Source of the DNA: a virus
Reading direction: 5' to 3' (one strand)
DNA: 64,000 bases
Virus record (IMG/VR): IMGVR_UViG_3300012642_000011
Location: 32,001 to 96,000 of that record
Numbering within the stretch: the stretch's first letter is position 1; each line of letters starts with the position of its first letter. Below, in pieces: positions 142 through 54,645 of this stretch. The position numbers were made by a program, and so were the translations under genes. The notes below the pieces were generated by a model. It ran no database searches. It was not told where the DNA came from and saw only the letters and a program-made list of their open reading frames with translations.

Positions 142-285
142 ATGCTCTTCAGATCAAATAACTGAATAATTCAGAAGGCCGTTGACCCTATTGTGATATT
201 GAAAATAGAGTCAGCGGCCTTCTCTTTTTGTGTCTATTTAGAGAAAACTGATACCAGAACCAAAAAGACGAGCAGGAGAATAACC

Positions 286-3200
286 TTGAGCGGGAATGCA
301 AACTACCTGAGTTCTCAGTACACTTCACCAGTTGAGACGAAGAAGATCACATCTGTTTTCAATGCAGCCAGTGCGATTGCTCTGGCCTTAATTGTGCTTG
401 TGATGACCTTTCTTCCTTTAGGTATTTCTTCTCTTACAAATAATAATTCAGGTTCTCCCGATCAGCATTCTGTTTCTGTAGGTCAGGCAGAGGCATCATT
501 GTTCTGTAGCCCAGGACTAGGCGTTGGAATGGGTGATAAAAATGATTGGACTACACCACTAAGTACTTTCCCTAATGGAGAATCAGAGAACAGAGTATTC
601 ACTGCACAAGAGGCATTTGCTAACAACGCTTTCTTTGTCAACTTTTATGGTGAGAATGAGAACCCTGGCTGGTTCTTCTTTGCAAGAGATGTGAACCAAG
701 AGGCATGGGGTGAGAACCCACGCATGGAAGACATTCAGAGTTCACGAGGTGGCGCTGGGTGTATTATAAACCCTCTAGGAAGAACTGTTGCTAATCTTGG
801 TCTTGCACTTGCCAATGGATTCTCGTTTGTCTCAGGAGCGGTTATCAGTTGGGCGTTCAACCCTGAATTCATCTGCCAGCCAAATGCCCCAGAAGGCACA
901 GTATGCTTTAACCTTCTTGGATTTATTGGTGGAGATGGAGGAAGTGAAGAAGGTCTGATCGCTTCTCTCACCAAGAGTATTTATTTCCCTCTCCTTGTTT
1001 TGATGTCTGTGCTTTCTGGAATGTGGATTATTTGGGAAGGAGGCAAGAGACGAGTAAGGTCAGCACTAGGTGGAGCATTGTGGTCTATTGTCGTGGTTAT
1101 GCTCGGTATTGGATTCCTCGGTAACCCACAACTTCTTGCACGTGCCCCTATGGAGATCACTAACACCATGGCATCTTGTGTAATTGGCGTCATGGGTGGA
1201 GATAACTGTTTGACAGGAGAACGTGGTGTATCTTTGGTGCCTGAGAATGGTACATCATCAAGAGATAACCTGTGTGTTTCCTCATCAAATGGTTCTGGAA
1301 TTGGATCAGGAAAAACCATGTCCATGACAGTCAATTCCATTAATTGCCAAATTTGGAAGAGTTTTGTTCTTAACCCCATTTCCTACGGATCTTTTGGTAC
1401 AAGTTTTGAAAGACTTGATGCATATAGTCCTCAGGTTAGACCATTGATTGAGAAAGCAGGATATAGTCCAGAAGATTTCTGTGTCAACATGGGGTCAAGT
1501 AGGTCTGCTGACAGCATGAAGAATGGTATTCTCGTTCTAGACAAGTCAGATGTGCAGATTTGTAACTTGATGATCTATCAAGCATTCTTGTCTTCAAAGG
1601 CTTCAATGCAACCAGACATTACCATAGATGCTCTCAATAATCCTGAATCAAGAGACGCTGATTGGTATAAGTTGGTCAACGTCATTGCCCAAGATCAAGG
1701 AATGTGGTCTTCATGGAATTCCAATAATTCAATGGGATTCACAGAAGACTTGACCATGAGTGGATTGGCTGTCTTCATGTCCATTGTTGGTGGGCTGATC
1801 TTGATGGCTATTGGACTCTCTGCCCTCATGTTCTACATACTGTCTTTGATCATGTTGATCTTTGCTCCCTTCTTCTTGCTCTTTGCAGCACATCCAGGTA
1901 GAGGAAAGAGGATCTTCTTCGGCTGGCTTGAGAATGTTGTTGGCTACCTGATCAAATATGTCGTATCCGCTTTGTTCTTGGTCATCACTATAGCATTCTA
2001 TGGTGCAGCACTTGCAGGCATGGACAACATTTTGATGACTATGATTTTCATCATCCTTATCAGCCTTGTTCTGTGGTACTACAGGTCAGAAATAATGGAA
2101 CTCATTGGTCGTGTCAATATGGGTGGAGAACAGATAGGACGTAAGACCACTGATGCGCTTAAGCAGAGGTTCGGCAACGATGGAGAACGTTGGAAGAGAG
2201 TCAGCAGAAGTGCAATGGGCGGTGCTGTGGGATCAGCCTTTGCTGGTGGAAGCCTCAAGGCTGGAGTTGTGGATGGTGCAACCAGAGAACTCAAGAAGGG
2301 CAACACCACTCTGGCAGCCACTATGCGTGCTATGGATCGTACAAGCCTTCAGAACAGGAAAGAACTCAAGGCCAAGATGGAGCAGTCTGCAAATGCTGTC
2401 AGAAATGCAGAGGCTACACACAATGCAGCAGTCTCTTCTTACAACACTGTAAAGCAGGATGCAGAGGGAAGATCGGAATCTGTACGAGATCATCAGGCAA
2501 AGCTTTCTTATCTTGACCAGAACAAGAAGGCCAACGATCAGGCTGCTCAGGACGTACTCTATGACATGCAAGAATCCGAATACAATAAGCATCAACAATT
2601 CATTAATGACATCAATAATGATGAATCATTGAGTGATGAAGAGAAGCAGGAGGCCATCTCCCAGTTCGAGCAGACCAGTTCTACCAAGAGCAACCAGCAA
2701 ATGTATGCTGACCTTGCCGAGTTGAAAGAACTTGAAAATGCTATCCGTGACATGAAGTTGAACATTCAAGTTGCTGAAGCCAACGGCGAAGATACTACTG
2801 CGCTTGAGAATCAGTTGCAAGACCTCAAGGATGAGAAGCAAGAACTCATGGGAAGGCATTCTACTGAAGAATGGAACAATGCCAAGGAGAAGTTCGAGAT
2901 GGAGTTCGAAACCGAACTCTCTATCAGAGACATTGAGCGCTTTGATGCCGATTCCGAATCCGCAATGGTTGAGCATGTTGTGAAACTTGCTGAAGACAAA
3001 GAAGCACTTGCAAACATCTCTGATGATGTAACAAGTCGTGGAAATGATCTTGCTATTGCAGCATCTACATTGGCAGCATCAAAGATTGCTCATGATGCTT
3101 ACTCCAACAAATACTATGATTTGAATGCATCTGATCTGTACACCCACAAGGATGTTGAGAGGACAGAAAATGAAGTCATGAAGAGTCAGGATGTTCAAAG

Positions 3201-5976
3201 AGTCATTGATGGACAAATGACACCAGAAGAGTTCGCTGAGAAGTGGAACGGTGAAGACTACATGGACACCAACTACTACCAGAGATTCAGAGATTCTGAG
3301 AGAGTTATGGACCCTGAAGATGAATACGATGTTCAAGACTTCAAGGACAAATGGGGAAATGATGCTACACCATTGAACACTAATGCTCTCAAGGATAATG
3401 CAAATCTCTCTCACATAGAGGATGCTGATCGTTTTAGAAGAACATCTGAAGGTGTGTCTATTGATGAGTTTGACATGGACACCGCTTCAAGAAGAGACTT
3501 CAATTGGGAAGACACCATTGATCCTCGCGGTAATGATGATCCAAACGATCTCCCTAACGATGATGATCTAAGAGATCCTAACGGAAACGACGATCCAAAC
3601 GATCTTCCTGACGATGATAATGTCAACAGTGGTGATAATGAGGGTCCAAGAACACGCGACTATGAGCGCCCACTCGATAGCGATAGGACTACAGGCAGGT
3701 TTAATACCGCTGCTGATGATGAGCCTATTGATTACGAGATGCCTACGCCTGAAACCATGCCATATGGTTATGATGACTCTTATAGTGATGATCTGCCTGA
3801 TGATGACGATGCGCCATTCGTTGATCCTGTTACAAATGAGAATTATACTCAGGAAGAAGTCGAAGAGATGCAGGCTGCAGGCTACCAGTTCTCCACTCCT
3901 GATACTGACAAGCCATATACTCGTGAGGACTTGTCAAGATACAGTGATGAAGAGATCGCAGAAATGTATCCTGATCCTGCTGTATCTGAATCTGCAAGAG
4001 ACTTTGATGCTCCTGCACGAACCGCTGAGGACTTGTCAAGGTACAGTGATGAAGAGATCGCAGAGATGTACCCTGATCCTGCTGTATCTGAATCTGCAAG
4101 AGACTTTGATGCTCCTGCACGAACCGCTGAGGACTTGTCAAGGTACAGTGATGAAGAGATTGCAGAGATGTATCCTGATAACAGACCTGAAGTTTCATCT
4201 TCAACGGATCTTCCATCTGCAACAACACCTGTTGATACACGAGCAGAGACAGTACCACCTGTTGTTGTTCCTGTTGATCCAGTACAACAGCCACAGGACC
4301 AGCATGTTGATGCATCTTTTGACAGTACCTCAAGTCAGGACAGAAATGTGGACAGCGTACCTGAGGTGGAGACTCCTGTTGAAACCGACACAACAACTGC
4401 CCGTAACGAAAGACCAGTTCGTGATCAGGGACCAGTTCGTGACGAAGTACCAATGGCTGTTCCAACATCTGAGGACAGAAGAGTTCCTTCAGGAGAGATG
4501 CCTGATGTTATCCCTTCAACACCTGTAGAATCAATCGTTGACAGGCCAGATGAGACTCTGACACGAGTGGAATCTGCACCAGTTGAGGGAACACGAGATC
4601 CAGTGCAAACAGAGGAAGTTCGCACACCACGCTCATCTGATGAGACAAGTCGTGTAGTGAATGAGAACAATGATCGTGTGGTTCCAAGTGTTGACAACTC
4701 TGATGATAGAGCAGTCCCAACTCAAAATGACAATAATGTCTTGAGGGATGCCGAAAATGAGTTGAGAGATGCTGATGTTGCTAACAGAAATGCACAAGAG
4801 TACTTGAGGGCTGAGGCTGAAAGACTTGCTAGGGCACAGCAGGCAAATACTGATACTGTAGCAGACAGGGCGGTAGTAGCAGATAGCCTTTCTGAAGGGG
4901 CGATAAGAGATCTCCCATCAAGGTCTGACAACATGAATGATGCTGTTGTAGATAGAGAGGGTGTTGCTCCAACTATTCCTGTTAGGGAAGCCCCTGTTGC
5001 CTCTGAGAAGCGTCAGAATGAGTTCAGCGCACAATCACGTCAAGATGATGTGAGAGCGCCGCAGATCGATAGCAGTGCTCTTCCAGAGAACATTGTGGTA
5101 GATGATGCATCTTCTGTTGCTCCTACTCCATCTGTGGATCGCAATGTGGCAACTCCTGTAAACAACGTTGACACAACACCTGCTGAAAGCAGAAGAAGCA
5201 ATGTGGATGCAACAGAAGCAAGACCTGTAATTAACGAGACAAGGCAGGTTCCTTCTGAGAAGCCAGCAGTGGTAGAAAACAATGAGTCTGCACCTAGAGT
5301 GAATGACAGAATCGACAATGTAGTGATTGATAGAGATGCATCAGCAACTCCTTCAGACACCAGAACTGAGGCACCTAGAGCAGAAAAGGTTGAAACAGTT
5401 AAACCACAGCGTGATACACCTGTTGAGCCAAAGGTAGTGACTGTAGAGAAGGAAGTTCCTGCCGTTGTTGAGAGGACAGTTCCTTCAGAGAATAATGCAT
5501 CGCAGAGGGTAGTTGAGAATGATTCTCAGACACGTCCTTCTGGCGAGGGTTCTTCACAGAGACGTGATGGTGAGGAGACAACGTTGGCTGATAGAGTTGG
5601 ATCTTTCTTCAGAAGTAAGGATGAATCTTCTACTGCTGGAAATGATAGAAGAAGTGAAAATGTCGATTCTAACAGAGGTGAGAGCGATTCTACGAGACAA
5701 AAAGCAAGGTCTATCTCTGATAATGCTAGAAGAATCAGAGAGCAGGCAGAGGCGGCTTTGAGAGAGGCTGACAAGATCGGTTCTGAAGCAGACAGGGTAG
5801 AGAGAAATGTGGGAAGTCGAAACGTGGACCCACGAGGAACAATGGCTGATAGGGATACGGATTCTGAGGTAAGAAGATATATGTCTGAAAACAAATCTGA
5901 ACCTGACAATAAGCCTAAGTTGAGAAGGGTTGCTCCCAAGGTGGACAGAAGAATGAAGGAAGAGCGTGATTCGTGA
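286..5976 (+). CDS. Giant polytopic membrane protein, paralog 1, with VirB6/ConG-like topology, a coiled-coil core and an acidic repeat-rich cytoplasmic tail
   Basis: ORF track gives 193..5976. The likely true start is TTG 286, 7 nt after AGGAG at 274-278. The protein has a signal-anchor helix, a large extracytoplasmic domain, two clusters of 3-4 TM helices with a P-G-x-G motif (…FAAHPGRGKR…), and a ~1300-aa tail with coiled-coil and D/E/P-rich repeats. It is paralogous to 23000..27169 and 27166..30483. Confidence 0.55.
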   Translation: MSGNANYLSSQYTSPVETKKITSVFNAASAIALALIVLVMTFLPLGISSLTNNNSGSPDQHSVSVGQAEASLFCSPGLGVGMGDKNDWTTPLSTFPNGESENRVFTAQEAFANNAFFVNFYGENENPGWFFFARDVNQEAWGENPRMEDIQSSRGGAGCIINPLGRTVANLGLALANGFSFVSGAVISWAFNPEFICQPNAPEGTVCFNLLGFIGGDGGSEEGLIASLTKSIYFPLLVLMSVLSGMWIIWEGGKRRVRSALGGALWSIVVVMLGIGFLGNPQLLARAPMEITNTMASCVIGVMGGDNCLTGERGVSLVPENGTSSRDNLCVSSSNGSGIGSGKTMSMTVNSINCQIWKSFVLNPISYGSFGTSFERLDAYSPQVRPLIEKAGYSPEDFCVNMGSSRSADSMKNGILVLDKSDVQICNLMIYQAFLSSKASMQPDITIDALNNPESRDADWYKLVNVIAQDQGMWSSWNSNNSMGFTEDLTMSGLAVFMSIVGGLILMAIGLSALMFYILSLIMLIFAPFFLLFAAHPGRGKRIFFGWLENVVGYLIKYVVSALFLVITIAFYGAALAGMDNILMTMIFIILISLVLWYYRSEIMELIGRVNMGGEQIGRKTTDALKQRFGNDGERWKRVSRSAMGGAVGSAFAGGSLKAGVVDGATRELKKGNTTLAATMRAMDRTSLQNRKELKAKMEQSANAVRNAEATHNAAVSSYNTVKQDAEGRSESVRDHQAKLSYLDQNKKANDQAAQDVLYDMQESEYNKHQQFINDINNDESLSDEEKQEAISQFEQTSSTKSNQQMYADLAELKELENAIRDMKLNIQVAEANGEDTTALENQLQDLKDEKQELMGRHSTEEWNNAKEKFEMEFETELSIRDIERFDADSESAMVEHVVKLAEDKEALANISDDVTSRGNDLAIAASTLAASKIAHDAYSNKYYDLNASDLYTHKDVERTENEVMKSQDVQRVIDGQMTPEEFAEKWNGEDYMDTNYYQRFRDSERVMDPEDEYDVQDFKDKWGNDATPLNTNALKDNANLSHIEDADRFRRTSEGVSIDEFDMDTASRRDFNWEDTIDPRGNDDPNDLPNDDDLRDPNGNDDPNDLPDDDNVNSGDNEGPRTRDYERPLDSDRTTGRFNTAADDEPIDYEMPTPETMPYGYDDSYSDDLPDDDDAPFVDPVTNENYTQEEVEEMQAAGYQFSTPDTDKPYTREDLSRYSDEEIAEMYPDPAVSESARDFDAPARTAEDLSRYSDEEIAEMYPDPAVSESARDFDAPARTAEDLSRYSDEEIAEMYPDNRPEVSSSTDLPSATTPVDTRAETVPPVVVPVDPVQQPQDQHVDASFDSTSSQDRNVDSVPEVETPVETDTTTARNERPVRDQGPVRDEVPMAVPTSEDRRVPSGEMPDVIPSTPVESIVDRPDETLTRVESAPVEGTRDPVQTEEVRTPRSSDETSRVVNENNDRVVPSVDNSDDRAVPTQNDNNVLRDAENELRDADVANRNAQEYLRAEAERLARAQQANTDTVADRAVVADSLSEGAIRDLPSRSDNMNDAVVDREGVAPTIPVREAPVASEKRQNEFSAQSRQDDVRAPQIDSSALPENIVVDDASSVAPTPSVDRNVATPVNNVDTTPAESRRSNVDATEARPVINETRQVPSEKPAVVENNESAPRVNDRIDNVVIDRDASATPSDTRTEAPRAEKVETVKPQRDTPVEPKVVTVEKEVPAVVERTVPSENNASQRVVENDSQTRPSGEGSSQRRDGEETTLADRVGSFFRSKDESSTAGNDRRSENVDSNRGESDSTRQKARSISDNARRIREQAEAALREADKIGSEADRVERNVGSRNVDPRGTMADRDTDSEVRRYMSENKSEPDNKPKLRRVAPKVDRRMKEERDS
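3526..3633 (+). repeat. Two tandem in-frame copies of an ~54-bp (18-aa) acidic unit, GNDDPNDLP(N/D)DDD
   Basis: Direct reading of the sequence: …GNDDPNDLPNDDDLRDPNGNDDPNDLPDDDN…. Confidence 0.5.
3925..4195 (+). repeat. Tandem 102-bp (34-aa) repeat, ~2.7 copies (EDLSRYSDEEIAEMYPDPAVSESARDFDAPARTA)
   Basis: Copies start at 3925, 4027 and 4129. Copies 1 and 2 differ at 3 positions, all synonymous. Confidence 0.9.
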
Positions 5977-13097: not shown

Positions 13098-13699
13098 CCT
13101 CAAGAAGCAGAGAAGATATGGATTTTATTGAAGAGTCCAGAAGAAGGGCTAAACTCGCATCCGGTGAAGTCACATCAGAAGATGAGGTACTTTATTCTAC
13201 TGCTGAAGAATACAATAGAATCCCATGGTGGAAGAGATACATTACATGGTCTGCTTTCTTTTTCATCTGCGCTCTAGTGTCATCTGGTGCCACTCTTGCT
13301 CTCTTCATGGCTTTGGAAAAGGTCTATAGTGTTGATACTATCAAGTACATTCTTGAAAGTGGAGGATTGGTTTACGCTAAAGAGACCAAGGATTATTTCC
13401 TTCTCTCCATTTATGATTACAAGTGGGCGATTATTCTTGGTCTCTTTGCTCTGTTCCTCATGCTTTCCATACTCATGCTGCTTCTTGAATTGAGAAGGAT
13501 TAAAAAGATAGATGATAAAAATATGCTCCTTCAAGAATCCGATAGCGTAGAAGATTCAAAAAGTGATTCTTTGAGTGATGAGGAAGAGCAGTATATGGAT
13601 TCTTTCAACACAGTAGACGAAGTTGAAAATGAGTTTCCTGCAGAAGACACTGATATCGAAAAGTTTTTAAATGATCAGAAGAATAGGAACGGTCAGTGA
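13094..13699 (+). CDS. Two-TM membrane protein with an acidic C-terminus
   Basis: Two hydrophobic helices, then an S/D/E-rich tail. Overlaps the upstream stop. Confidence 0.45.
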   Translation: MTSRSREDMDFIEESRRRAKLASGEVTSEDEVLYSTAEEYNRIPWWKRYITWSAFFFICALVSSGATLALFMALEKVYSVDTIKYILESGGLVYAKETKDYFLLSIYDYKWAIILGLFALFLMLSILMLLLELRRIKKIDDKNMLLQESDSVEDSKSDSLSDEEEQYMDSFNTVDEVENEFPAEDTDIEKFLNDQKNRNGQ

Positions 13700-14391
13700 G
13701 TAACAGGACAACAAAGCAAAAACAGGACTTGAAGATAAAGATTCTAATCGGTATTTTAATTGCATTCCTCATCATCACGATTGGCTTGATTTTCCTTGTC
13801 ATCAATGGTGTCAATAAAGACAGTGTAGTGAAAGACAATAGCGAGAGCAGTCCTGCCAGTAGTAGTCAACAGGTGGATCAGATAAGCAGAACACTGTCGG
13901 GAAAGACTGTTGAAGAAGACAAGAAAGATGCTGTAGAGTCCATAAGAAGAATCATTGAAGAGGCTGCTAAAAACCCTTCAAACAAGCCAGATTTGATGTC
14001 TCAAGTTGATGCTATCGAAAAAGAAGAAGATGGCGTTGTGACAGATGATCTCAAGTCAATGATCAGAACTGATGGATTTGATCCTATTACTAAGAATATA
14101 AGAACTGTCAATACATTGCAGTCTTTGGTTGTTGTTGCTGATGCAGTCAAGGACGAAAAGGGTAAGGTCAATCTTGTCCAAGATGATGCTTGGAATCAGG
14201 CTTTCGTGGATCAGGAAGCAGGGTATGCTCTTGTTCCATTGACAGTATTCCATTCAACAGGAGCATTTGATTTCCATATGGTTTACGTTGAGGGCAAATG
14301 GGAGTTCGCTCCCAAAACATTCATTGATGATGTTGCCAGATTCTCCCAGCAAGCATCTGAATCCCAATCTGAATCCTCCCCATCTTCGTAA
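13696..14391 (+). CDS. Membrane-anchored extracytoplasmic protein
   Basis: N-terminal TM (ILIGILIAFLIITIGLIFLVI); coupled start. Confidence 0.45.
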   Translation: MSNRTTKQKQDLKIKILIGILIAFLIITIGLIFLVINGVNKDSVVKDNSESSPASSSQQVDQISRTLSGKTVEEDKKDAVESIRRIIEEAAKNPSNKPDLMSQVDAIEKEEDGVVTDDLKSMIRTDGFDPITKNIRTVNTLQSLVVVADAVKDEKGKVNLVQDDAWNQAFVDQEAGYALVPLTVFHSTGAFDFHMVYVEGKWEFAPKTFIDDVARFSQQASESQSESSPSS

Positions 14392-14401
14392 GTCGAGGAT
14401 T

Positions 14402-15861
14402 AAATAAGGGTTGGCAACTGTTGCCCCAGATAGTATTCTAAAGTAATTTTGCTATACTATAAGATAAAGACATCAGAACAAAAGAAGGGGGAGAGAATGA
14501 GCACCATTGTTTTACAATATGCCCTCAACCCCACCACAGAACAAGAAGAAAAACTCAAATCCCACAGCGGAGCAGTAAGATTTGCATACAACTGGCTTCT
14601 CAATGAAATACTTGACAACTGGGCAAAAGTCAAAAACAGTGAAACTAATGAGTACCTCAACACCTCATCCTACGCACTGAGAAATCACTTGAACGCCCAC
14701 AAAGAAGAAGTAGCACCATGGTGGAAAGAAAACAGCAAGGAAGCCTTCGCCACAGGAGCCAATAATCTCTCCCTTGCGCTGAAAGGCTACTACAATAAAC
14801 GCACTGGACTCCCCAAATTCAAGAAGCGAGATCTGAATCACTCTGAAGGTGTGACTTTCACAACCGGAACCAGACGTTTAGAGCAAGGGGATAAACACAT
14901 CACCCTGCCACGTTTAGAAACCATCAAACTCCACGAGAAAGCCACTAAAGCGCGATGGTTACTCAACCACGGAGCAAAACTCACTCTCGCCAGTGTTAAA
15001 TATTCGAGAACCCGATGGTTCGTCACTCTTACTTTCAGAGTAAATGAGGATTTAGAGCAGCAATACCACTTGAAGCGCACTAAGAAAGACAAAAAGAGAT
15101 CCGCCATTGGTGTCGATCTCGGTGTGAAGAATCTTGCTGTGTTCTCGGACGGAACTGTGATCGAGAATCCGAGAATATACGAGAAATACTTGAAAAAACT
15201 CCGCCGTTTGAACAAGAGGCTGTCACGTCGTCAAGGTTTGGACAAGAAAACGGGGCAGATGCCTTCACGCCGGTACGAGAGGGCGAAAGCAGATGTGGCA
15301 AAAATGCATGCTAAAATCGCCAATATTGAGGAGGATAATCTTCACAAGTTAAGCAAGAGGCTGGTGGATGATTACTCATTAATTGGCTTGGAGGACTTGA
15401 ACGTGGCGGGTATGGTGAAGAATCATCGTTTGTCTCGTCGTATTGCTCATGCTCAGTTTGGCAAGTTGCGTCAATTGGTGGCGTATAAGTCTGCATGGTA
15501 TGGGTCGAAAACTGTCCTGATTGACAGGTTTTACCCGAGCACTCAAGTGTGTTCTCAATGTGGTGCAAGATCGAAAGTCAAGATCTTGTTGCATGTGAGA
15601 GTATTTGAGTGTGATAATTGTGGTGTTAGGATCGATAGGGATCTGAATGCTGCGATTAATATTGAGAAACAAGCCGTCGCCCAGAGTTGCGGGGAGACGT
15701 TAAACGGTCGTGGAGACGGAAGCGCTGGCTTGGTTTCACCAAGTGAAACTCCTGTCTGTGAAGCGATTAGTGAGAGCAGGATTCTCACAATCGCGTAAGC
15801 GATAATCTATTTACTACTATTTAGATTAACGGTTGATCATGGACTCGATCAACCCTTATTT
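14402..15861 (+). mobile_element. IS200/IS605-family tnpB-only element (IS1341-like) with left-end and right-end hairpins and 12-bp inverted termini
   Basis: LE AAATAAGGGTTG at 14402-13 followed by hairpin GGCAAC-T-GTTGCC at 14413-25. RE hairpin GGTTGATC-atggactc-GATCAACC at 15831-54 followed by CAACCCTTATTT at 15850-61, the reverse complement of the LE terminus. A single tnpB lies between them. Confidence 0.7.
14497..15798 (+). CDS. tnpB: TnpB (OrfB) RNA-guided endonuclease of the IS200/IS605 family
   Basis: ATG 14497 follows GGGGGAG. Intact RuvC triad context: IGVDLGVKNLAVFSDG, …LIGLEDLNVAGM…, …RIDRDLNAAINI…. C-terminal Zn finger CSQCG…CDNCG. Confidence 0.9.
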   Translation: MSTIVLQYALNPTTEQEEKLKSHSGAVRFAYNWLLNEILDNWAKVKNSETNEYLNTSSYALRNHLNAHKEEVAPWWKENSKEAFATGANNLSLALKGYYNKRTGLPKFKKRDLNHSEGVTFTTGTRRLEQGDKHITLPRLETIKLHEKATKARWLLNHGAKLTLASVKYSRTRWFVTLTFRVNEDLEQQYHLKRTKKDKKRSAIGVDLGVKNLAVFSDGTVIENPRIYEKYLKKLRRLNKRLSRRQGLDKKTGQMPSRRYERAKADVAKMHAKIANIEEDNLHKLSKRLVDDYSLIGLEDLNVAGMVKNHRLSRRIAHAQFGKLRQLVAYKSAWYGSKTVLIDRFYPSTQVCSQCGARSKVKILLHVRVFECDNCGVRIDRDLNAAINIEKQAVAQSCGETLNGRGDGSAGLVSPSETPVCEAISESRILTIA

Positions 15862-15915
15862 TTGTTAAGATAGTGGTATCGAAAAGAGTATCCTATTAAT
15901 ATAAAGAGGGGCATT

Positions 15916-18219
15916 ATGTCATTAACCTTGGCTAGAGTAGAGTTGAATAATTTCAGATTGCATAAGAATGTGGTTTTTGAACCTAAACAGACAGGTTTAG
16001 TCACTATCACAGGTCCTAATGGGTCTGGAAAGTCTTCTATTGTCAATGCTGTGGAATGGGCCTTATACGGCACAAAGCATAAGGGCATCTCTAAGAACTC
16101 TGATCTGATTCGAGAAGGTGTTGATCCGAAGAAAACAGAGGTCTTTGTCAAGGTAGATTTCATTTCAGGAGACACTGTTTACAGAGTGATCAGGACAATC
16201 AAAAGTGCCTCTCTGACAGAAGCAGAAATTTATCGTTCCCCCTCATTGGAGGATTATAAGAATGATAAATCCGAAGGAAAAATGGAGATTGAGGATCGTG
16301 ATCCCTTTGCTGCTGGTGTCTCCGATGTATCCAGAGAAGTCAAGAGAATCCTTGGCATGGACGAGAAGGGTTTTCTTACTGCCGTTAAGGTAGCCCAAAA
16401 GGAAGTTGACGGAATTATTCTCAGCGGTAAGGCTGAGCGAGGAAAGGTCATTGAGGATCTTACGGGTATTTCATCGTTGACTATTGCTTTAAAGAAGGCT
16501 AGAGAAGAGCATCGTGATCTGAAGAAAACAAGTGAATTCTTCACGGCCAGCAGGGATGACTTGAATGCGCTGCAGGCAGAGGTAGATGCACTGATTCCAA
16601 AGGTAGGAGATAAGAGAGAAGCACTTGTATCTGTCAGGGATGATGCTAAAGAGAAGAAGGAATCCTTTGATCAATTAAAGGAAGAAGTTCGTCAGCAACA
16701 GGAGATTGTTGATCAGAATAAGATGAATTCCGAGAAGATCATCGAGATCAAGGGAAGAATTAAAGCTGGTGAAGTCACTGTTTCTGATCTTCTCCAAGAG
16801 AGACAGGATAAGAAGAAAGAACTCACTGTCTTTGGTCATTCACCTATGACTTTGGATGCGGCAGAGAAAGCCATGTCTTCACTGAACGCAGAGATGTCTT
16901 CATTGTCATCAGCAAGGATCAATCTTGAGTCTAGGGTTTCTTCTATTGAGAGTAAGAAGAAATCTTTAGATGAATCTATTGCAAAAAAGGGCTATGAGAA
17001 GATAGAAGATCTCATAGGTGAGATGAGAACTCTCAAGGCAGACTCCGAATCATTGCAAAATGAAATCAATGATCTTCAGGATCAGTCTTCTTCAGTTGTC
17101 TCAGAAGGAAAGAAGATCAATGTTGCTATTGATGCTTTGACGCAAGATGATGGAACTTGCCCCACATGCTTGCAGAGAGTTGCTGATCCTTCAGAAGCAG
17201 TTGAGTTGCTTCAAGGGCAGGTGGCTTCTTTGAGGAAGAAAAACAAGGAGATCAAGTCCTCTATTGAAGAGAAGAAGGCGCTTCTTGCAGAGAAGAAAAC
17301 TAATTTTGATGAGTTGAATCAGATCAGAGTGTCATGGAAGTCCATTGCAGAGGACATTGAAACCATTGAGTCCATGAAGAAGGAGATCATGGATTACGAG
17401 TTCAAGGAAAAGATTGTTTCGAACAAGATCAAGAGCGCGGAATCTGATCTTGCTGATGCAAGGGATTTGAAGTCGAAGAAGGATGAGTATGACAGAATTA
17501 TTGCTCGCTACAATAAGGCTGATGAGGTACTGTCTGGTTTGAAAACACAGCTGTCCTCTTTGGAAGAGTCAATAGGTGAAAATAAGCCATTGAGTGAGGC
17601 CAAAATGGCTTCTTTGAGAAAGAAGATGGATGCTGCATCTGATGCGTACATCAAGGTCGCTGAGAAGTATTCATCTGACAAGGCTGATTACAAAGAGATT
17701 GAGGAAAGTCTGAAGTACAAGCAGAAAGAACTTGATGCTATGAAGGAAAGCGTTGAGAAGTACGAGAAGTCTTTGCTTGCTGTGGAGAGGTCTGTGTCAG
17801 CATTGAAGGTTGTTGAAGAGTATCGTGAAGATAGAATCTCTGAATCAATTCCTTTGATTGAAGCACATGCGTCTGAAATGATGAACCGTTTTACTTCTGG
17901 AAAGTTCACTCAGATTCTGATGGATCATAACTTCAATGTATCCATTGTCAGAGCAAATGGTGTAAAGGTTCCTATTGGTACGTTGTCAGGTGGAGAAATG
18001 TCAGCAGCAGCCATTGCTATCAGGTTGGCTATTGCTATTGTTTTGGACACAAGTCTTCTCATTCTTGATGAAGCATTGGTTTCACAGGATTTGGAGAGAT
18101 CTGAGAGGATTCTTTCTGTAGTCAAGGATTATTTCCATGGTCAGATCATCTTGATTGCGCATAGCAGTGTTATCCATGAGGTTTCTGATCAGAACTTTGA
18201 ACTGAACAGGGATGATTGA
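15916..18219 (+). CDS. SMC/Rad50(SbcC)-family ATPase with a coiled coil and a CxxC zinc hook
   Basis: N-terminal Walker A (ITGPNGSGKSSIVNAVEWALYG). Long coiled coil with CPTC hook at nt 17158-17169. C-terminal ABC signature and Walker B (LSGGEMSAAAIAIRLAIAIVLDTSLLILDEA). No SbcD/Mre11-like neighbour. Confidence 0.8.
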   Translation: MSLTLARVELNNFRLHKNVVFEPKQTGLVTITGPNGSGKSSIVNAVEWALYGTKHKGISKNSDLIREGVDPKKTEVFVKVDFISGDTVYRVIRTIKSASLTEAEIYRSPSLEDYKNDKSEGKMEIEDRDPFAAGVSDVSREVKRILGMDEKGFLTAVKVAQKEVDGIILSGKAERGKVIEDLTGISSLTIALKKAREEHRDLKKTSEFFTASRDDLNALQAEVDALIPKVGDKREALVSVRDDAKEKKESFDQLKEEVRQQQEIVDQNKMNSEKIIEIKGRIKAGEVTVSDLLQERQDKKKELTVFGHSPMTLDAAEKAMSSLNAEMSSLSSARINLESRVSSIESKKKSLDESIAKKGYEKIEDLIGEMRTLKADSESLQNEINDLQDQSSSVVSEGKKINVAIDALTQDDGTCPTCLQRVADPSEAVELLQGQVASLRKKNKEIKSSIEEKKALLAEKKTNFDELNQIRVSWKSIAEDIETIESMKKEIMDYEFKEKIVSNKIKSAESDLADARDLKSKKDEYDRIIARYNKADEVLSGLKTQLSSLEESIGENKPLSEAKMASLRKKMDAASDAYIKVAEKYSSDKADYKEIEESLKYKQKELDAMKESVEKYEKSLLAVERSVSALKVVEEYREDRISESIPLIEAHASEMMNRFTSGKFTQILMDHNFNVSIVRANGVKVPIGTLSGGEMSAAAIAIRLAIAIVLDTSLLILDEALVSQDLERSERILSVVKDYFHGQIILIAHSSVIHEVSDQNFELNRDD

Positions 18220-18380: not shown

Positions 18381-19661
18381 GTGAGTCTTTCTTTTGAATC
18401 AAATACTATCTCAAAATACAAGATTGTGGAGAATGATGCATGGAATGATTGCTTCAATCTTCTTCTTGATCCTTCTGTCTCTGAAATCGAAGCCAATGGC
18501 CCTGATAAGTTTTTTATGAAGAAGAATGGTAGAAGGATTCATATTTCTCATATTAATATGACAGAAAAACAGTACAATGAAGCCCTTGAAGAGACTATGA
18601 AAAATAAAAAGGTCATGAGGGCATATGGTGAATTCTCGTGGGATGTATCACTGTTCGAAGGCATCCTTATGTATAATGTTCCCGATGCCAAGACAAGAGT
18701 CAGGGCAAGATGCCACGTCGTATTGCCCCCTGCTGCAACATATGCTCCTCAGGTGACCATTGCTAAGAAGAGTATCTCATTGAGCACATTGGATTCCATT
18801 GCAGGGCAAGGGTCCATGTCAACAGAGATGAAGAACTTCTTAGAGTGTGCTGTAGCATCTGATCTCACTGTGGTGTTTAGTGGTGGTACAGGTGCAGGAA
18901 AGACCACGATGATGGAAGCAGTGACGAAAATTATTGATCCAGAGTATAGAATCGGTATTGCTGAGGACTTGCCAGAACTTGAGTTGATCCAACCAAACGT
19001 TTCTTACCTTCAGTCGGTGCCTTATTCACCTGGTATGGATGTCAACAATGTGGTTACTCTTGAATGGGTTATCCAGCAGTTCCAGAGAATGAGAACAGAC
19101 AAACTTCTCGTTGGTGAGATTAGAGGTAAAGAGTTCTCATCATTCCTGATTGCCGCTAACTCTGGTATGGATGGATCTATGACCACAATGCACGCTGACA
19201 ACCCAAGAGCATGCTTAACAAAGATGTCAGAGTTCACATCTGCGGGCAGGCCAGGATCAAACATTAGAATGGTTAACCAATCCATTGGTGCATCTGTTGA
19301 CATTATTGTTCAGTTGGTCAAGCATAAAGACAAGCACAGGGTCAGCCACATTGAAGAAGTCTTAAGAGGTGTTGGTCAGGGAGAGGACGCAAAGATGACT
19401 TCCTCCACGCTTTACCAGTGGGATGAAGAAAAGGATGTCTTCTTAAAGAAGAGTCAGTTCAGTGATGAACTCCGTGAGAAGTTGCAGAAGAAATCTGCTG
19501 ACATTCAACAGTTCTTGGACAGCGCGCCGAATGTTCCACAACCTGCACATATGTCAAGGCCCACTCACTATGACCCAGCATCAGCGCACAAGACATCAAC
19601 ACCTTTGAGTAACATTGGTAGCAATCCATTTAAAACAGGTGGTAGCGGAAGGACAATATGA
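18381..19661 (+). CDS. VirB11/CpaF(TadA)-family secretion ATPase
   Basis: GTG start follows AGGAG. Walker A …VFSGGTGAGKTTMMEAV…. RIGIAEDLPELEL matches the Asp box/Walker B region of type II/IV secretion ATPases. Confidence 0.75.
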   Translation: MSLSFESNTISKYKIVENDAWNDCFNLLLDPSVSEIEANGPDKFFMKKNGRRIHISHINMTEKQYNEALEETMKNKKVMRAYGEFSWDVSLFEGILMYNVPDAKTRVRARCHVVLPPAATYAPQVTIAKKSISLSTLDSIAGQGSMSTEMKNFLECAVASDLTVVFSGGTGAGKTTMMEAVTKIIDPEYRIGIAEDLPELELIQPNVSYLQSVPYSPGMDVNNVVTLEWVIQQFQRMRTDKLLVGEIRGKEFSSFLIAANSGMDGSMTTMHADNPRACLTKMSEFTSAGRPGSNIRMVNQSIGASVDIIVQLVKHKDKHRVSHIEEVLRGVGQGEDAKMTSSTLYQWDEEKDVFLKKSQFSDELREKLQKKSADIQQFLDSAPNVPQPAHMSRPTHYDPASAHKTSTPLSNIGSNPFKTGGSGRTI

Positions 19662-45127: not shown

Positions 45128-46723
45128 ATGAAGAAGAATTTTATTAGACACTTGACACCAGAAGAGAAAGAGACCTTCTATGGGGCTATCGTCCTTGCAC
45201 AGTCAGAGATGCCTCACCTGATTGATATATTCCTTTCCATGCGTCCTTTCTATGACTCTACTGCTAAAACAGCCTATGTGGATGCTGACATCAGAGTGGG
45301 ATTGAGCGATTGGTTTTTCACTAAAACCACGCCAGCAGAAAGAGCGTTTGTTGTCACACATGAAGCATTGCATGTGCTTAATGCCCATGTGATTAGAACC
45401 CAAGAGTACGAATTGGATGATGCTCAAATTAGTGCAGACCTTGAAATCAACACCACATTGTTGGATTCCATGAAACTTACTGTGATAAAGGCACCTCAAG
45501 GAATCTTAACGCCCAAAAGATATGGACTTGCTCCCCGAAAGTCTATGGAATATTATTTAAAGAAATTAAATGCGAAGAAGAAAAGAAATCCTGACGACAT
45601 TGAGATCACAGATGAACCTCATGACTATGATGAACAAGAACAGGATGAAGATCAGGAGATAGAAGAGGAAGAAAATGCAACTGTCAATGAGGGCGAGTCT
45701 GACTCAGAAGATTACTATGAGACAGAGAACAAAATAGAGGAAGATGGTGATGAGGGAAGTTCCTCTGAGGACAGTTCTAGTGATGGTGATGAAAGCCAAG
45801 AGGGAGATGGTAACCAAGAAGGAGAAGGGGCCGGAGAGGGCGCTGAGAGCGATTCTGAGAGCAGTGGAGACGGTGAAGGATCAGAGTCAGGGTCAAGTGG
45901 TTCTAACGCTTCAGAAGGCTATGCAGAGTCTTCTGAAGCAGGATATGAATGCGACCAACTGAATGATGAAAGAAAGCATCATGCTGATGAAGCAGGTATT
46001 GAAAAGGCAGGATCAGTAGAGCAGATTAATGCAATTTCATCTGCAATACAAAGGATTGAAGAGGAAATCAAATCTTCTTCTGGATATAGCGAGAATGTCA
46101 GTGATGCTTTGGCGGCAATGGTGGCTAATATCACAGCGCCGAAGATGGATTGGACAAAAGAGTTTGCTCGTCTGATCAGTCAGGCTTACACAGAAGCAAA
46201 ATCAGGTCATGAGCACCTTTCTTACAAGAGAGTGAACAGAAGGTCACAGGGTGATTTCATCATGCCAGGTAGAATCTCCTATGAGCCTACTTTGATGTTT
46301 GCAACTGATATCTCTGGTTCCATGGGGACAGAGAAAATTGAGGCCGCTGTATCTGAGGCAGAAGGAATTGTTGCAAAGGCTTTCAAGACAAGAAGGAACA
46401 TGAGTTTTTTCGCGGTATCAACTTCTGTTTCTCAGATCAGAAAAGTAAGGTCGTTTAAAGAACTTGACTTGAGTATCGGTGGTGGCACCACGATGTCTGT
46501 AGGGTATAGGTATGTGACAGAACTGCCTCGTAAAGATCAGCCTGATGTTTTCGTACTTGCCACAGATGCCGAACTCGGGGGAGATGATTGGCAGAAGATC
46601 GCTGACATAGTAAGCGCTAACCCTCAAATCGTTTATGTAATGCTTGTCATATCTGAAAAAGACAACCTTGTTCCCGAAGGAATTAAAGGATTGATAAAAA
46701 TTTTGCAACTCTCTGAGTTTTAG
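45128..46723 (+). CDS. DUF2201-type protein with an N-terminal putative metallopeptidase (HExxH) and a C-terminal VWA-like domain with an acidic insert
   Basis: …AFVVTHEALHVLNAHV… lies in a DUF2201_N-like context. C-terminal …FATDISGSMG… has MIDAS-like DxSxS and …VFVLATDAEL…. Confidence 0.7.
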   Translation: MKKNFIRHLTPEEKETFYGAIVLAQSEMPHLIDIFLSMRPFYDSTAKTAYVDADIRVGLSDWFFTKTTPAERAFVVTHEALHVLNAHVIRTQEYELDDAQISADLEINTTLLDSMKLTVIKAPQGILTPKRYGLAPRKSMEYYLKKLNAKKKRNPDDIEITDEPHDYDEQEQDEDQEIEEEENATVNEGESDSEDYYETENKIEEDGDEGSSSEDSSSDGDESQEGDGNQEGEGAGEGAESDSESSGDGEGSESGSSGSNASEGYAESSEAGYECDQLNDERKHHADEAGIEKAGSVEQINAISSAIQRIEEEIKSSSGYSENVSDALAAMVANITAPKMDWTKEFARLISQAYTEAKSGHEHLSYKRVNRRSQGDFIMPGRISYEPTLMFATDISGSMGTEKIEAAVSEAEGIVAKAFKTRRNMSFFAVSTSVSQIRKVRSFKELDLSIGGGTTMSVGYRYVTELPRKDQPDVFVLATDAELGGDDWQKIADIVSANPQIVYVMLVISEKDNLVPEGIKGLIKILQLSEF

Positions 46724-52155: not shown

Positions 52156-54645
52156 GTGAGTTTTTTCAAGGACAGGAAAGTAGAGGAAGAGGATACTAAC
52201 CTCTCAGGATTGCTCGGGGAGAAGGGTCTTCCCTCTGATGAGTATGATCCCAATTCCGTGGCTAACAAGCGTGTTCCTAAGAAGACATGGCTGACTCTTG
52301 GCGCAGCAGGTCTTGTTTTTGGAACTGCCGCACTTGGAGCAGGATCTGTCGTGATGGCACCTGCCTTGGCTATTGCTGCTCCGAGCGTTGAGAGTTATAA
52401 GAATCTTCCTGAAAGTCTCCCTGATGCAACCATTGCTCAGAGAAGTGTGATGTATGACATCAATGGTGAGCCTTTCGCTGAAATCTATTCTCAGGATCGA
52501 GTGGTACTTGATTCTCTCGACAAGGTGAGTGACAACGTAAAGAATGCTTTGATCTCCACTGAGGACAAGAGATTCTATGAGCACAGTGGTTTTGACCCTG
52601 TGGGAACTGCACGTGCTGCCATTAGTGGTTCTGGTGGTGGATCTGGTATTACTCAGCAGTTGATCAAGAACTATCAGTTCTATGACATGGCTGGAAAAAA
52701 CAAGGAAAAGGCTATTGAGGCAACTTTAAGTCGTAAGATTCAGGAGTTGAAGTTTTCTCTTGATTATGAGAAGAACCACTCAAAGGATGAGATTCTTCTC
52801 AACTACTTGAACCTTGTTTCATTCGGCTCTCCCTCTACTTACTCCATTGAAGGAGCATCCAAGTACTTCTTTGGAAAGTCTGCCAAGGATCTTGATGTGG
52901 CTGAAGCCGCAGTCCTTGTAGGTACTGTGCAGAATCCAGTTAGCCTAAATCTCAACAAGGTCAACAAGGATGTTTTCAACGAGTACTCTAAGATCTATGT
53001 AGAAAAGTCTTCTAAGCAGGCAAGAATGTATCTCGACAAGGAGATCGAGAAGGGAAACATTGATGAGGCTCAGAAGAAGACAACAATCAAGATTAAAGAA
53101 CGTCAGAATGAGGTCTTGTCAAGAATGGCCGATGAGGGCCATATTGACAAGGATAAGGTTGAGGAGTTTTATGCGACTCCGTTGAACCTTGTCTACAAGA
53201 AGTCTTCTACAGGAAACTGTACCTCATCCGAGTATGAGTCTTATTGTGAGCGTGTCCTTAAAGAATTGAGCAATTCACCTCGTCTTGGAGAGACTGAGGA
53301 AGAGCGTGCTATTGTCATTGATAAGGGCGGATTGCATATTCATACTTATCTTGATCCTAAGGTTCAGGACAAGGTAACCAATCGACTGAAGAGTGACTTT
53401 GGTTATGAGAATCGTGTCGTTGCCCCTACTGCTATCGTCCAGCCCGGAACAGGTGGAATCCTTGCCGCTGATGTGAACAGAGAATACGGAGATGGTGACG
53501 GAAAGACCACTATCGATGTTCCTTCTGTCAGGACAGGTACAGGTTCTGCTTACAAGATGTTCACACTTGCTGCTGCTCTTGAAAATGGCATGTCTCCACA
53601 GCAGTTGGAATTCTCCACACCATGTCCTCTTTATTTCAGTGACTTCGATGAGCCTAGTGGCGGATTCAGTAACAGCCTTGGTTGTAGCAAACTTCAGTCA
53701 CAGAATTTGAACTTTGAGCAGGCTACTGCTTACTCATCAAACACATGGTTCACTGCCCTTGCTGAGAAGATTGCTTATCCCAATGGAGAGTTTGTTGGTC
53801 TTGAGCCTGTCTTTAAAATGACAGATTCACTCGGTCTGCATACTCCTGAGAACGTCACTAACAGGTCAATGTCCTATGTCCTTGGTGCTACAGGAAACTC
53901 TACTATTGATATGGCTGCTGCCTATGCCGCCTTCGCTAATGAAGGTGTGTACTGTCCTCCTACATCAGTGAAGAGTTATGAATACTCTGATGGAACTTCA
54001 CCCGTTGTTCCTGAGAGTTATAACCCTGAAGACACTAGTTGCCGTGCGGCTATGAGTCCTAGAACAGCGTCCACTGTTCTTCGTGCTATGCGAGCAAACA
54101 CTGTACCTGGTCATGTTGACAATGCCTTCGGTTTGATGGGTAACGTTCCCGGTTATGATGCTGTAGGAAAGTCTGGTACTAACCAGAACTACAACTACAC
54201 ATGGGGTCAGGTTTCCAAGAATTATTCTCTCTTCATCAACATCACTGACATGGATAAGATGACTCGTGGTGTGAATGGAAACTTCTGGTTCCGTGGTGGC
54301 CGTGCAGGTACAAGCACTGCTGTGATTGCTGGATCATCTGTGATGAAGGATGTACTCAAGGGAACTACACCTGTTCCTCTTGACTTCAACAACACCAGCA
54401 CTGATCGTGTCAATGTCCCTGTTGAGCGAAAGGATTTCTTTACAGTTCCTTCCGTAGTGGGTATGTCTCCTGAGCAGGCATTGGATACGTTGAGGTCAAC
54501 TGGCGTCAAGTCCAATGTAAGCAAGGAGAAGATTGCTTCTCAGAATGGTCTCCCATCCGGTGTGATCGGTGAACAGTCAATTCCTGCTGGGGAGAAACTT
54601 GCTGTGGGAACGCAGAAGGAGATTGTTCTCAAGATGGTCAATTGA
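52156..54645 (+). CDS. Class A penicillin-binding protein (GT51 glycosyltransferase plus transpeptidase) with a C-terminal PASTA domain
   Basis: GTG start follows AGGAAG. TM anchor; GT51 motif EDKRFYEHSGFD; transpeptidase SxxK (GSAYK), SSN and KSG motifs; C-terminal PASTA-like …FTVPSVVGMSPEQALDTLRSTGV…. Confidence 0.85.
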   Translation: MSFFKDRKVEEEDTNLSGLLGEKGLPSDEYDPNSVANKRVPKKTWLTLGAAGLVFGTAALGAGSVVMAPALAIAAPSVESYKNLPESLPDATIAQRSVMYDINGEPFAEIYSQDRVVLDSLDKVSDNVKNALISTEDKRFYEHSGFDPVGTARAAISGSGGGSGITQQLIKNYQFYDMAGKNKEKAIEATLSRKIQELKFSLDYEKNHSKDEILLNYLNLVSFGSPSTYSIEGASKYFFGKSAKDLDVAEAAVLVGTVQNPVSLNLNKVNKDVFNEYSKIYVEKSSKQARMYLDKEIEKGNIDEAQKKTTIKIKERQNEVLSRMADEGHIDKDKVEEFYATPLNLVYKKSSTGNCTSSEYESYCERVLKELSNSPRLGETEEERAIVIDKGGLHIHTYLDPKVQDKVTNRLKSDFGYENRVVAPTAIVQPGTGGILAADVNREYGDGDGKTTIDVPSVRTGTGSAYKMFTLAAALENGMSPQQLEFSTPCPLYFSDFDEPSGGFSNSLGCSKLQSQNLNFEQATAYSSNTWFTALAEKIAYPNGEFVGLEPVFKMTDSLGLHTPENVTNRSMSYVLGATGNSTIDMAAAYAAFANEGVYCPPTSVKSYEYSDGTSPVVPESYNPEDTSCRAAMSPRTASTVLRAMRANTVPGHVDNAFGLMGNVPGYDAVGKSGTNQNYNYTWGQVSKNYSLFINITDMDKMTRGVNGNFWFRGGRAGTSTAVIAGSSVMKDVLKGTTPVPLDFNNTSTDRVNVPVERKDFFTVPSVVGMSPEQALDTLRSTGVKSNVSKEKIASQNGLPSGVIGEQSIPAGEKLAVGTQKEIVLKMVN

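Follow-up and report, generated by a model that had tools for sequence, protein, structure and literature searches.

A tnpB gene between inverted repeats: very likely a tnpA-less IS607-type TnpB-ωRNA element within a host terminator

Do the inverted repeats around a tnpB gene mark the ends of the mobile element that carries it? The question is raised by a 64,000-nt stretch of the IMG/VR record IMGVR_UViG_3300012642_000011 (positions 32,001 to 96,000 of that record; hereafter the window, to which all coordinates refer). Here, a tnpB gene lies between the 12-mer AAATAAGGGTTG at 14402-14413 and its exact reverse complement CAACCCTTATTT at 15850-15861. An earlier note, made from the sequence alone, read the two 12-mers as the inverted termini of an IS605-family element. 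Comparison of occupied and empty alleles, and of copies with other flanks, places the boundaries of the element at 14411 and 15832, and the locus is very likely a tnpA-less IS607-type TnpB-ωRNA element of approximately 1.42 kb (14411-15832) that interrupts a host terminator, a case that corrects an attractive but wrong reading of a tnpB element with inverted termini. The element, its parts, and its immediate flanks are listed below with the evidence for each (TAM, target-adjacent motif).

14402-14410, + strand: host left flank, the left-arm remnant of the terminator (AAATAAGGG); from the empty sites L010 and L014
14408-14410, + strand: candidate TAM GGG; from GGG at all four distinct left junctions
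14409-14410, + strand: IS607 core dinucleotide GG; from the junction comparison and the literature
14411-15832, + strand: mobile element, 1,422 bp, comprising left end, tnpB, ωRNA, and right end; from the comparison of empty and occupied sites and of copies
14411-14496, + strand: left end; from the left junctions of four copies
14497-15798, + strand: tnpB, 433 aa, predicted RNA-guided RuvC nuclease; from Pfam, NCBIfam, and the alignment to ISDra2
about 15676-15832, + strand: ωRNA scaffold, overlapping the last 123 nt of tnpB and ending in ACGG (15829-15832); from RNAalifold and a covariance model
15827-15863, + strand: rebuilt terminator at the right junction; from inverted repeat I23, a terminator scan, and folds
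15833-15852, + strand: predicted guide segment, also the target in the empty allele (TTGATCATGGACTCGATCAA); from the first base after the AACGG terminus, with a length of 20 nt assumed

Empty Sites and the Host Terminator

Contigs were gathered by exact match to the protein encoded upstream of the element (13696-14391) and to the Rad50-like protein encoded downstream (15916-18219). The look-up gave many near-identical metagenome contigs, two of which, L010 and L014, lack tnpB, and the insertion is thus polymorphic in presence and absence. The empty contigs read ...AAATAACGGTTGATCATGGACTCGATCAACC(G/C)TTATTTTTG...; after the upstream stop codon comes GTCGAGGATTAAATAACGGTTGATCATGGACTCGATCAACC(G/C)TTATTTTTGTTAA, followed directly by the leader of the Rad50-like gene, with AAATAACGG running directly into TTGATCATGG. 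This region forms a hairpin whose 15-bp stem encloses a loop of 8 nt and is followed by a U-run (-20.4 kcal/mol, z = -5.8), which is the intrinsic terminator of the host behind gene 13696-14391. Because the empty sites show the two 12-mers as the two arms of this one hairpin, both are host sequence, and the insertion of the element separated the arms by 1.4 kb.

The exact repeats described in the earlier note are therefore present but do not mark the ends of the element. An element bounded by 12-bp terminal inverted repeats (TIRs) at 14402-15861, with its guide read from 15862, has almost no chance of being the correct description, exact as the repeat is. The empty alleles hold both 12-mers, with one polymorphic base per arm, contiguous across the 8-nt loop as a single hairpin; other copies of the element lack these 12-mers; and neither IS607 nor IS605 elements have TIRs (PMC10711439; bioRxiv 10.1101/2023.11.20.567912). 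The 12-mer pair is only modestly above chance: two or more matches at no more than 1 mismatch turned up in 3 of 100 shuffles. The hairpin with an 8-bp stem that had been described next to the right terminus (GGTTGATC...GATCAACC, 15831-15854) was likewise found by inverted-repeat and terminator scans, but the true right end lies at 15832. Insertion into a hairpin makes host sequence resemble TIRs, which is a general trap in delimiting such elements.

The empty alleles also bear on the Rad50-like gene, for which the element had been proposed to supply a promoter. The leader of this gene differs in the empty alleles by a few polymorphisms only. Since the leader is native there, and since a terminator stands between tnpB and the Rad50-like gene in the occupied allele, the element is not the source of the promoter.

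Boundaries and Copies of the Element

Three copies with other flanks (L072, L244, and L017) encode TnpB proteins 96-98% identical to that of the window, and the search for further copies suggested earlier thus succeeded in defining the ends and a candidate GGG TAM. None of the three carries the 12-mers claimed as termini, an outcome that counts against the claim by the earlier note's own reckoning. By blastn, L072 and the window have only 14418-15832 in common (97.7% identity). The right end, ...TTTAGATTAACGG, is invariant across copies with differing right flanks; it is identical in L072, L244, and L017 (...GATTAACGG) and is followed by TTGATCATGG... in the window and L017 and by ATACTATCAC... 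in L072 and L244. The left junctions of the four copies are as follows, a slash marking the junction.

Window: AAATAAGGG/TTGGCAA-CTGTTGCCCC
L244: GAAGAGGG/TTGGCGA-CTG..
L017: CCATGGGGG/TTGCCGA-CTG..
L072: AGAAAGGGG/CTGTCGAG-CTG..

Near-identical copies thus occupy at least four different left junctions and two right junctions. Every copy has GG (in fact GGG) directly before its left end and GG as the last two bases of its right end, and the junctions of the window read ...AAGGG/TTGGCAA and ...TTAACGG/TTGATC. The register 14409-15830 is equivalent to 14411-15832, as GG occurs at both junctions. Neither a target-site duplication (TSD) nor a true TIR was found at the junctions of the compared copies. 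Another register, with crossover at AA (14408-15829, G at 14408 within the element), was considered, as it would explain a G/C difference between occupied and empty alleles described below. As a general rule it was rejected, because neither L244 nor L017 has a left flank ending in AA and because this register would require CGG as an invariant target motif throughout the family.

The palindrome GGCAAC-T-GTTGCC at 14413-14425, reported earlier as a hairpin at the left end, is present in its letters, but its folding is no better than that of shuffled sequence (z = +0.56), and it probably serves in protein binding and not as a DNA hairpin. The left tip (14411-14417) varies between copies, conservation setting in at 14418 (CTGTTGCCCC); in a distant relative the left end reads GGGTGTTAACTGTTGT. 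The tip diverges far more than the remaining 1.4 kb (96-98% identical), with the right half of the palindrome (GTTGCC) kept and the left half drifting. This variation may reflect neutral decay of a TnpA-binding site in copies without tnpA. Further inside the left end, an extended -10-like promoter box (TGCTATACT) lies at 14450-14458, and a ribosome-binding site (GGGGGAG) stands ahead of the tnpB start codon. A TGnTAnnAT box was found upstream of tnpB or tnpA in all seven related elements (including L232, L240, L241, L245, L246, and L247), 30-50 nt from the first gene, which implies that the left end carries a putative promoter of its own.

The element repeat is longer than the reads, and contigs that join the same flank to different partners may be assembly chimeras; contig breaks were accordingly discounted as evidence of polymorphism. 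The same flank on one side with an unrelated sequence on the other was seen in L017 (1-361) compared with the window, in L244 (1-622) compared with L072 (1-2921), and in L234 compared with L237. Such mixed-flank copies could have arisen from recombination between copies, from mosaic genomes, or from chimeric short-read assemblies. An apparent rearrangement between L003 and L072 that joined tnpB to a distant region was rejected owing to Nextera adapter sequence (CTGTCTCTTATACACATCTGACGCTGCCGACGA) at the contig ends (L003 5051-5123, L072 6556-6604), and pairs of distant multi-copy relatives were left unused for the TAM because their left boundaries are ambiguous. A blastn search of phage and plasmid collections with the DNA of the element gave no match, and an exact-protein look-up returned no record identical to the TnpB of the window.

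TnpB and Family Affiliation

The tnpB open reading frame (ORF) contains the Pfam domains HTH_OrfB_IS605, OrfB_IS605, and Cas12f1-like_TNB. The RuvC triad D207, E299, and D382 aligns to D191, E278, and D361 of ISDra2 TnpB (PDB 8exa/8bf8, E = 8.5e-47), and a zinc finger is formed by C352, C355, C372, and C375 (CSQC at 352, CDNC at 372). The gene is thus intact in its RuvC and zinc-finger motifs, as the earlier note had recognized. The ratio of nonsynonymous to synonymous substitution rates (dN/dS) between TnpB copies is 0.05-0.19, indicating purifying selection.

The family label is a different matter, as the element is very probably IS607-type by its GG core, its serine recombinase lineage, and the NCBIfam ranking. 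The top NCBIfam model is IS607_TnpB with 342.4 bits (slightly below the NCBI cut-off of 350), and IS200_TnpB reaches 281.5 bits against a cut-off of 425. Named homologues are 40-44% identical, mostly from Actinobacteria, and annotated as IS607 TnpB. The closest distinct relative, P0002 (61% identity), directly follows a tnpA gene with a Resolvase domain (193-200 aa) in 8 of 8 contigs representing approximately six sites, and this tnpA encodes a helix-turn-helix N-terminus and the motif YTRVSSHDQ. The P0002 element ends in RGG/GTAGAG... on the left and ...TCTAACGG/T on the right, closing with TAACGG/, and shows the same GG core without TSD or TIR at six sites. Five other relatives (57-62% identity) are, like the window element, solo tnpB. 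An autonomous IS607 element encodes a serine-recombinase TnpA (MerR-like helix-turn-helix plus resolvase catalytic domain) upstream of tnpB. In the window only 86 bp separate the left end from the tnpB start codon, too few for a tnpA gene, and the element is by its sequence best described as a non-autonomous, tnpA-less derivative of the IS607 lineage rather than an autonomous IS607 element.

In L234 (approximately 2017-2088), the P0002 element with tnpA and tnpB abuts a tRNA-Trp gene at its 5′ end, and ARAGORN still calls the tRNA across the right-end junction. In L238 (2067-2450), the P0002 element interrupts another tnpB gene in its 3′ part.

An IS200/IS605-type element, moved by a Y1 transposase in the "peel-and-paste" manner, would be a tnpB-only element located 3′ of a TAM GGTTG, spanning 14414-15835 with a guide from 15836. 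GGTTG does occur at both junctions of the window, so the empty-site comparison alone permits this register, and the Pfam label OrfB_IS605 and the small palindrome at the left end would also fit. However, copies with the other right flank (L072 and L244) end in ...AACGG/ATACTA and not in ...GGTTG, which largely refutes this register, and AACGG is the right-end terminus family-wide. The nearest relative is associated with a serine recombinase and not with a Y1 transposase, the IS200_TnpB score of 281 bits lies below both its cut-off of 425 and the IS607_TnpB score, and the left-end palindrome is thermodynamically insignificant. With no Y1 gene in the element and a GG core at both ends, an IS200/IS605 origin is very improbable.

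ωRNA and Guide

The DNA motif GCCCAGAGTTGCGGGGAG(A/G)C shows no letter change among relatives with only 55-62% protein identity. Eight elements were aligned from 30 nt before this motif to the right end. RNAalifold gave 36 consensus pairs for the eight relatives, 16 of them with compensatory double changes. In this alignment 97.1% of cells are paired, none of 500 column shuffles reaches the observed covariation, and slid-partner controls give 0-3 covarying pairs. The helices comprise 15676-84/15690-98, 15707-11/15763-67, and an internal three-way region with the hairpin CUUGG-UUUCA-CCAAG; toward the 3′ end follow GUGAGAG/UUCUCAC (15770-76/15782-88), AUCGC-GUAA-GCGAU (15790-15803), and UAAUCUA/UAGAUUA (15803-09/15822-28). 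An ωRNA over the 3′ end of tnpB, as previously proposed for 15700-15861, is therefore supported by covariation, with its position shifted to approximately 15676-15832.

Rfam 15 holds no ωRNA family that matched in either the gathering or the permissive search. A covariance model (R1) built from the eight-element alignment gives 175 bits for 15647-15832 of the window; the covariance search recommended in the earlier note thus gave nothing with Rfam and a match with a custom model. R1 also matched 40 further sites, in full or in part, all of them at the 3′ ends of tnpB genes of distant relatives (approximately 30-40% protein identity), including those in Bifidobacterium genomes and human-gut viral contigs (loci L021-L046, L084, L180, L181, L183, L209, and others). 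In a 41-sequence alignment, which is fitted to the model and thereby favours the structure, 30 of the 36 pairs covary, a level reached by 0 of 500 shuffles. Scans of viral sequences with patterns for the conserved core of the ωRNA and for the target sequence gave no match. The covariation-supported ωRNA model obtained here has no Rfam counterpart and picks out related elements from Bifidobacterium and gut viral contigs.

Most R1 hits end in ...AACGG, and the full-length ones in the conserved ...(G/A)(C/T)AACGG, after which the sequences are unrelated. Because the AACGG terminus is conserved and the sequence beyond it varies, the boundary between scaffold and guide at 15832/15833 is fixed independently of the empty-site comparison. 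The guide is predicted to be read from the right flank, as the earlier note supposed, and to begin at 15833 (TTGATCATGG...), 29 nt upstream of the start at 15862 given there. Immediately after the right end comes T or A in copies of the window element and any of the four bases across the family. The predicted guide TTGATCATGGACTCGATCAA is unique in the window and takes in what remains of the left arm of the host terminator, its loop, and a portion of its right arm. A sequence matching the guide follows GG in the empty sites as well.

Predicted Rebuilt Terminator at the Right Junction

The element not only disrupted the host terminator but may also have restored one. In the empty alleles the displaced host arm reads TAACGG, exactly as the right-end tail does, and the left flank in the window (TAAGGG) differs from the tail by one base. 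Because the tail mimics the displaced arm, a terminator is predicted to be rebuilt at the right junction. The tail TAACGG and the host bases TTGATC (15827-15838) form a stem with GATCAACCCTTA (15847-15858), the right arm of the host hairpin, that contains a single C·C mismatch; a T-run follows at 15859-15863, and the terminator scan matched 15831-15854. The rebuilt hairpin folds at -12.1 kcal/mol (z = -2.7) in the window and at -14.8 kcal/mol (z = -3.3) in the allele L016, where the stem is perfect. Judging from these folds, the rebuilt terminator probably ends the tnpB and ωRNA transcripts and should block read-through into the Rad50-like gene, and it may set the 3′ end of the ωRNA.

Proposed Mechanism and Alternatives

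In IS607 elements, excision and integration proceed by crossover at a GG dinucleotide through a double-stranded DNA circle, without TIR or TSD (PMC10711439; bioRxiv 10.1101/2023.11.20.567912). By analogy, the window element would have entered the left arm of the terminator behind gene 13696-14391 by a GG/GG crossover, with an IS607 serine recombinase supplied in trans. It would carry a left-end promoter, an intact RuvC nuclease gene, and an ωRNA of approximately 157 nt whose scaffold stops at ...TTAACGG. The ωRNA would then extend into the flank to acquire the guide TTGATCATGGACTCGATC..., which, together with a GGG-type TAM (AAGGG/), would specify the vacant form of the same site. The ribonucleoprotein (RNP) could cut empty alleles and lead to recombinational re-copying of the element, i.e., retention or homing, as has been shown experimentally for other IS605 and IS607 TnpBs (PMC10711439; bioRxiv 10.1101/2023.11.20.567912), while transposition itself would depend on a serine TnpA acting in trans. 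The terminator rebuilt at the right junction would insulate the Rad50-like gene and probably set the 3′ end of the ωRNA. From these analogies we infer nuclease activity, the TAM, homing, and mobilization in trans, and the element is probably active.

Several observations weigh against this reading. The IS607_TnpB score falls short of its cut-off, as given above. No tnpA was found in the 64-kb window by tblastn with P0002-type TnpA (best match E = 0.048, elsewhere), and the element may not be mobile at present. Between copies, the left end varies over its first 7-8 nt (TTGGCAA, TTGGCGA, TTGCCGA, and CTGTCGAG), whereas a strict GG-crossover model predicts no difference. The guide is self-complementary, as it forms the terminator hairpin, and this could impair targeting. 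Lastly, position 14408 is G in 11 of 11 occupied left junctions (window, L001-L009, and L011) and C in both empty alleles; therefore, a simple relation of excision and insertion at GG needs an additional single-nucleotide polymorphism (SNP), tight linkage, or selection.

The simplest reading of the split at 14408 is a SNP in complete linkage with an insertion of single origin. One coherent history of the alleles would run from C...G (L010, perfect stem) to C...C (L014, mismatch) and then to G...C (perfect stem, GGG created), followed by insertion. The right-flank haplotype with 34G>T and a deletion of 49-51 is found alike in the empty L010 and L014 and in the occupied L015 and L016, and the SNPs of the left flank are mosaic, indicating frequent recombination. 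In sample ERZ28621121, the empty-allele contig L014 occurs beside L006, a contig of the left flank ending at AAATAA, exactly where the empty and occupied alleles diverge, which is the assembly bubble expected of the polymorphism.

Selection by the nuclease itself would be another explanation of the same split. Occupied junctions carry the TAM-like AAGGG and empty alleles carry AACGG, and CGG is the end of the right end family-wide (...AACGG). The empty alleles may thus be natural TAM-escape variants in which CGG, as a non-TAM, resists conversion by TnpB; the terminal CGG of the element would shield occupied sites from self-cleavage, and the right-end tail would re-create the terminator by design. 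If true, the rebuilt terminator would make the insertion neutral and set the 3′ end of the ωRNA. We regard this combination of RNA-guided homing and escape as unlikely. The coexistence of empty and occupied alleles in public metagenomes makes retention or homing testable on natural populations.

Alternatively, TnpB might be an immobile protein retained by the host, either domesticated or as a relic, with presence and absence arising only from deletion and recombination between strains. The lack of tnpA, the decaying left tip, and the frequent strain recombination indicated by mosaic flank SNPs agree with this, and purifying selection on TnpB would fit a host function. Against it stands the intact catalytic triad, unlike that of nuclease-dead TldR-type derivatives, together with the full conservation of the ωRNA scaffold and the right-end terminus. 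Moreover, the number of distinct junctions among near-identical copies (at least four on the left and two on the right) and a guide that still matches its own empty site are as expected of a selfish element. An immobile TnpB is accordingly improbable, and the tnpA-less IS607-type insertion is preferred.

Comparison With Known Systems

The element is a further case of a known kind, the IS607-type TnpB element, and known TnpB biology is unchanged by these findings. It resembles the IS607 transposons ISXfa1 of Xylella fastidiosa and CboIStron/IS607 of Clostridium botulinum in having GG at both junctions without TIR or TSD. Its candidate TAM is likewise G-rich (GGG in 4 of 4 left flanks); the TAM is GGG in ISXfa1 and TGGG in Cbo (PMC10711439; bioRxiv 10.1101/2023.11.20.567912). 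As in ISXfa1 and CboIStron, the ωRNA (reRNA) overlaps the 3′ end of tnpB and is predicted to read into the right flank. Copies without tnpA are known beside full ones in the IS607 family, and here the relative P0002 has tnpA directly upstream. Unlike IS607 and CboIStron, the window element has neither tnpA nor a group I intron, and the base that follows the right end is variable, whereas in ISXfa1 it is fixed and part of the scaffold. The named IS607 TnpBs are also distant (only approximately 40-44% identity), and the host of the window element is probably an uncultured small-genome bacterium.

With the TnpB-ωRNA of ISDra2, an IS200/IS605 element (PDB 8exa, 8bf8, and 8h1j), the window element shares the fold, the domain order, the D-E-D triad and the zinc finger, the C-terminal half aligning at E = 8.5e-47, as well as a 3′-overlapping ωRNA with a flank-derived guide. 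ISDra2 differs in its Y1 transposase, its single-stranded DNA hairpin ends, its TTGAT TAM 5′ of the left end, and the lack of a common core dinucleotide. The replacement of the host arm TAA[C/G]GG by the tail TAACGG recalls elements that rebuild structured RNA genes or terminators, such as integrases at tRNA genes, and so does the tRNA-Trp called across the junction of the related element in L234. Unlike in those elements, there is no integrase or att system here, and the likeness is a resemblance only, as an identity of 6-9 nt may be due to chance or to target preference. The outcome is a cleanly delimited and probably active IS607-type TnpB/ωRNA element with a candidate GGG TAM, a predicted guide start at 15833, and an RNA model.

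Genomic Context

The ORFs of at least 200 aa are all on the + strand across 1-64000, and the gene content includes genes resembling those of a type IV secretion system, a 1,927-aa TrbL/VirB6-like protein, lysozyme, sigma-70, a VirB11-like ATPase, HU, a class A penicillin-binding protein (PBP) with a PASTA domain, a ClpB-like ATPase, and RecG. The genes located are as follows.

193-5976, + strand: TrbL/VirB6-like protein, 1,927 aa
15916-18219: Rad50-like gene downstream of the element
18381-19661, + strand: VirB11-like ATPase
52156-54645, + strand: PBP1 with a PASTA domain
61166-63934, + strand: RecG

No tRNA or other Rfam hit was found in the 64-kb window. Homologues of the PBP are located on contigs of 670-727 kb, one of which (727,572 bp) also carries a related TnpB, P0004. 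Given this gene content and these contigs, we infer that the DNA of the window derives from the chromosome of an uncultured small-genome bacterium rather than from a phage. Elsewhere in the window, the ORF 45128-46723 contains a DUF2201_N metallopeptidase-like region and matches a PHROG HNH endonuclease (E = 2e-40), and it may be another selfish or defence-related gene.

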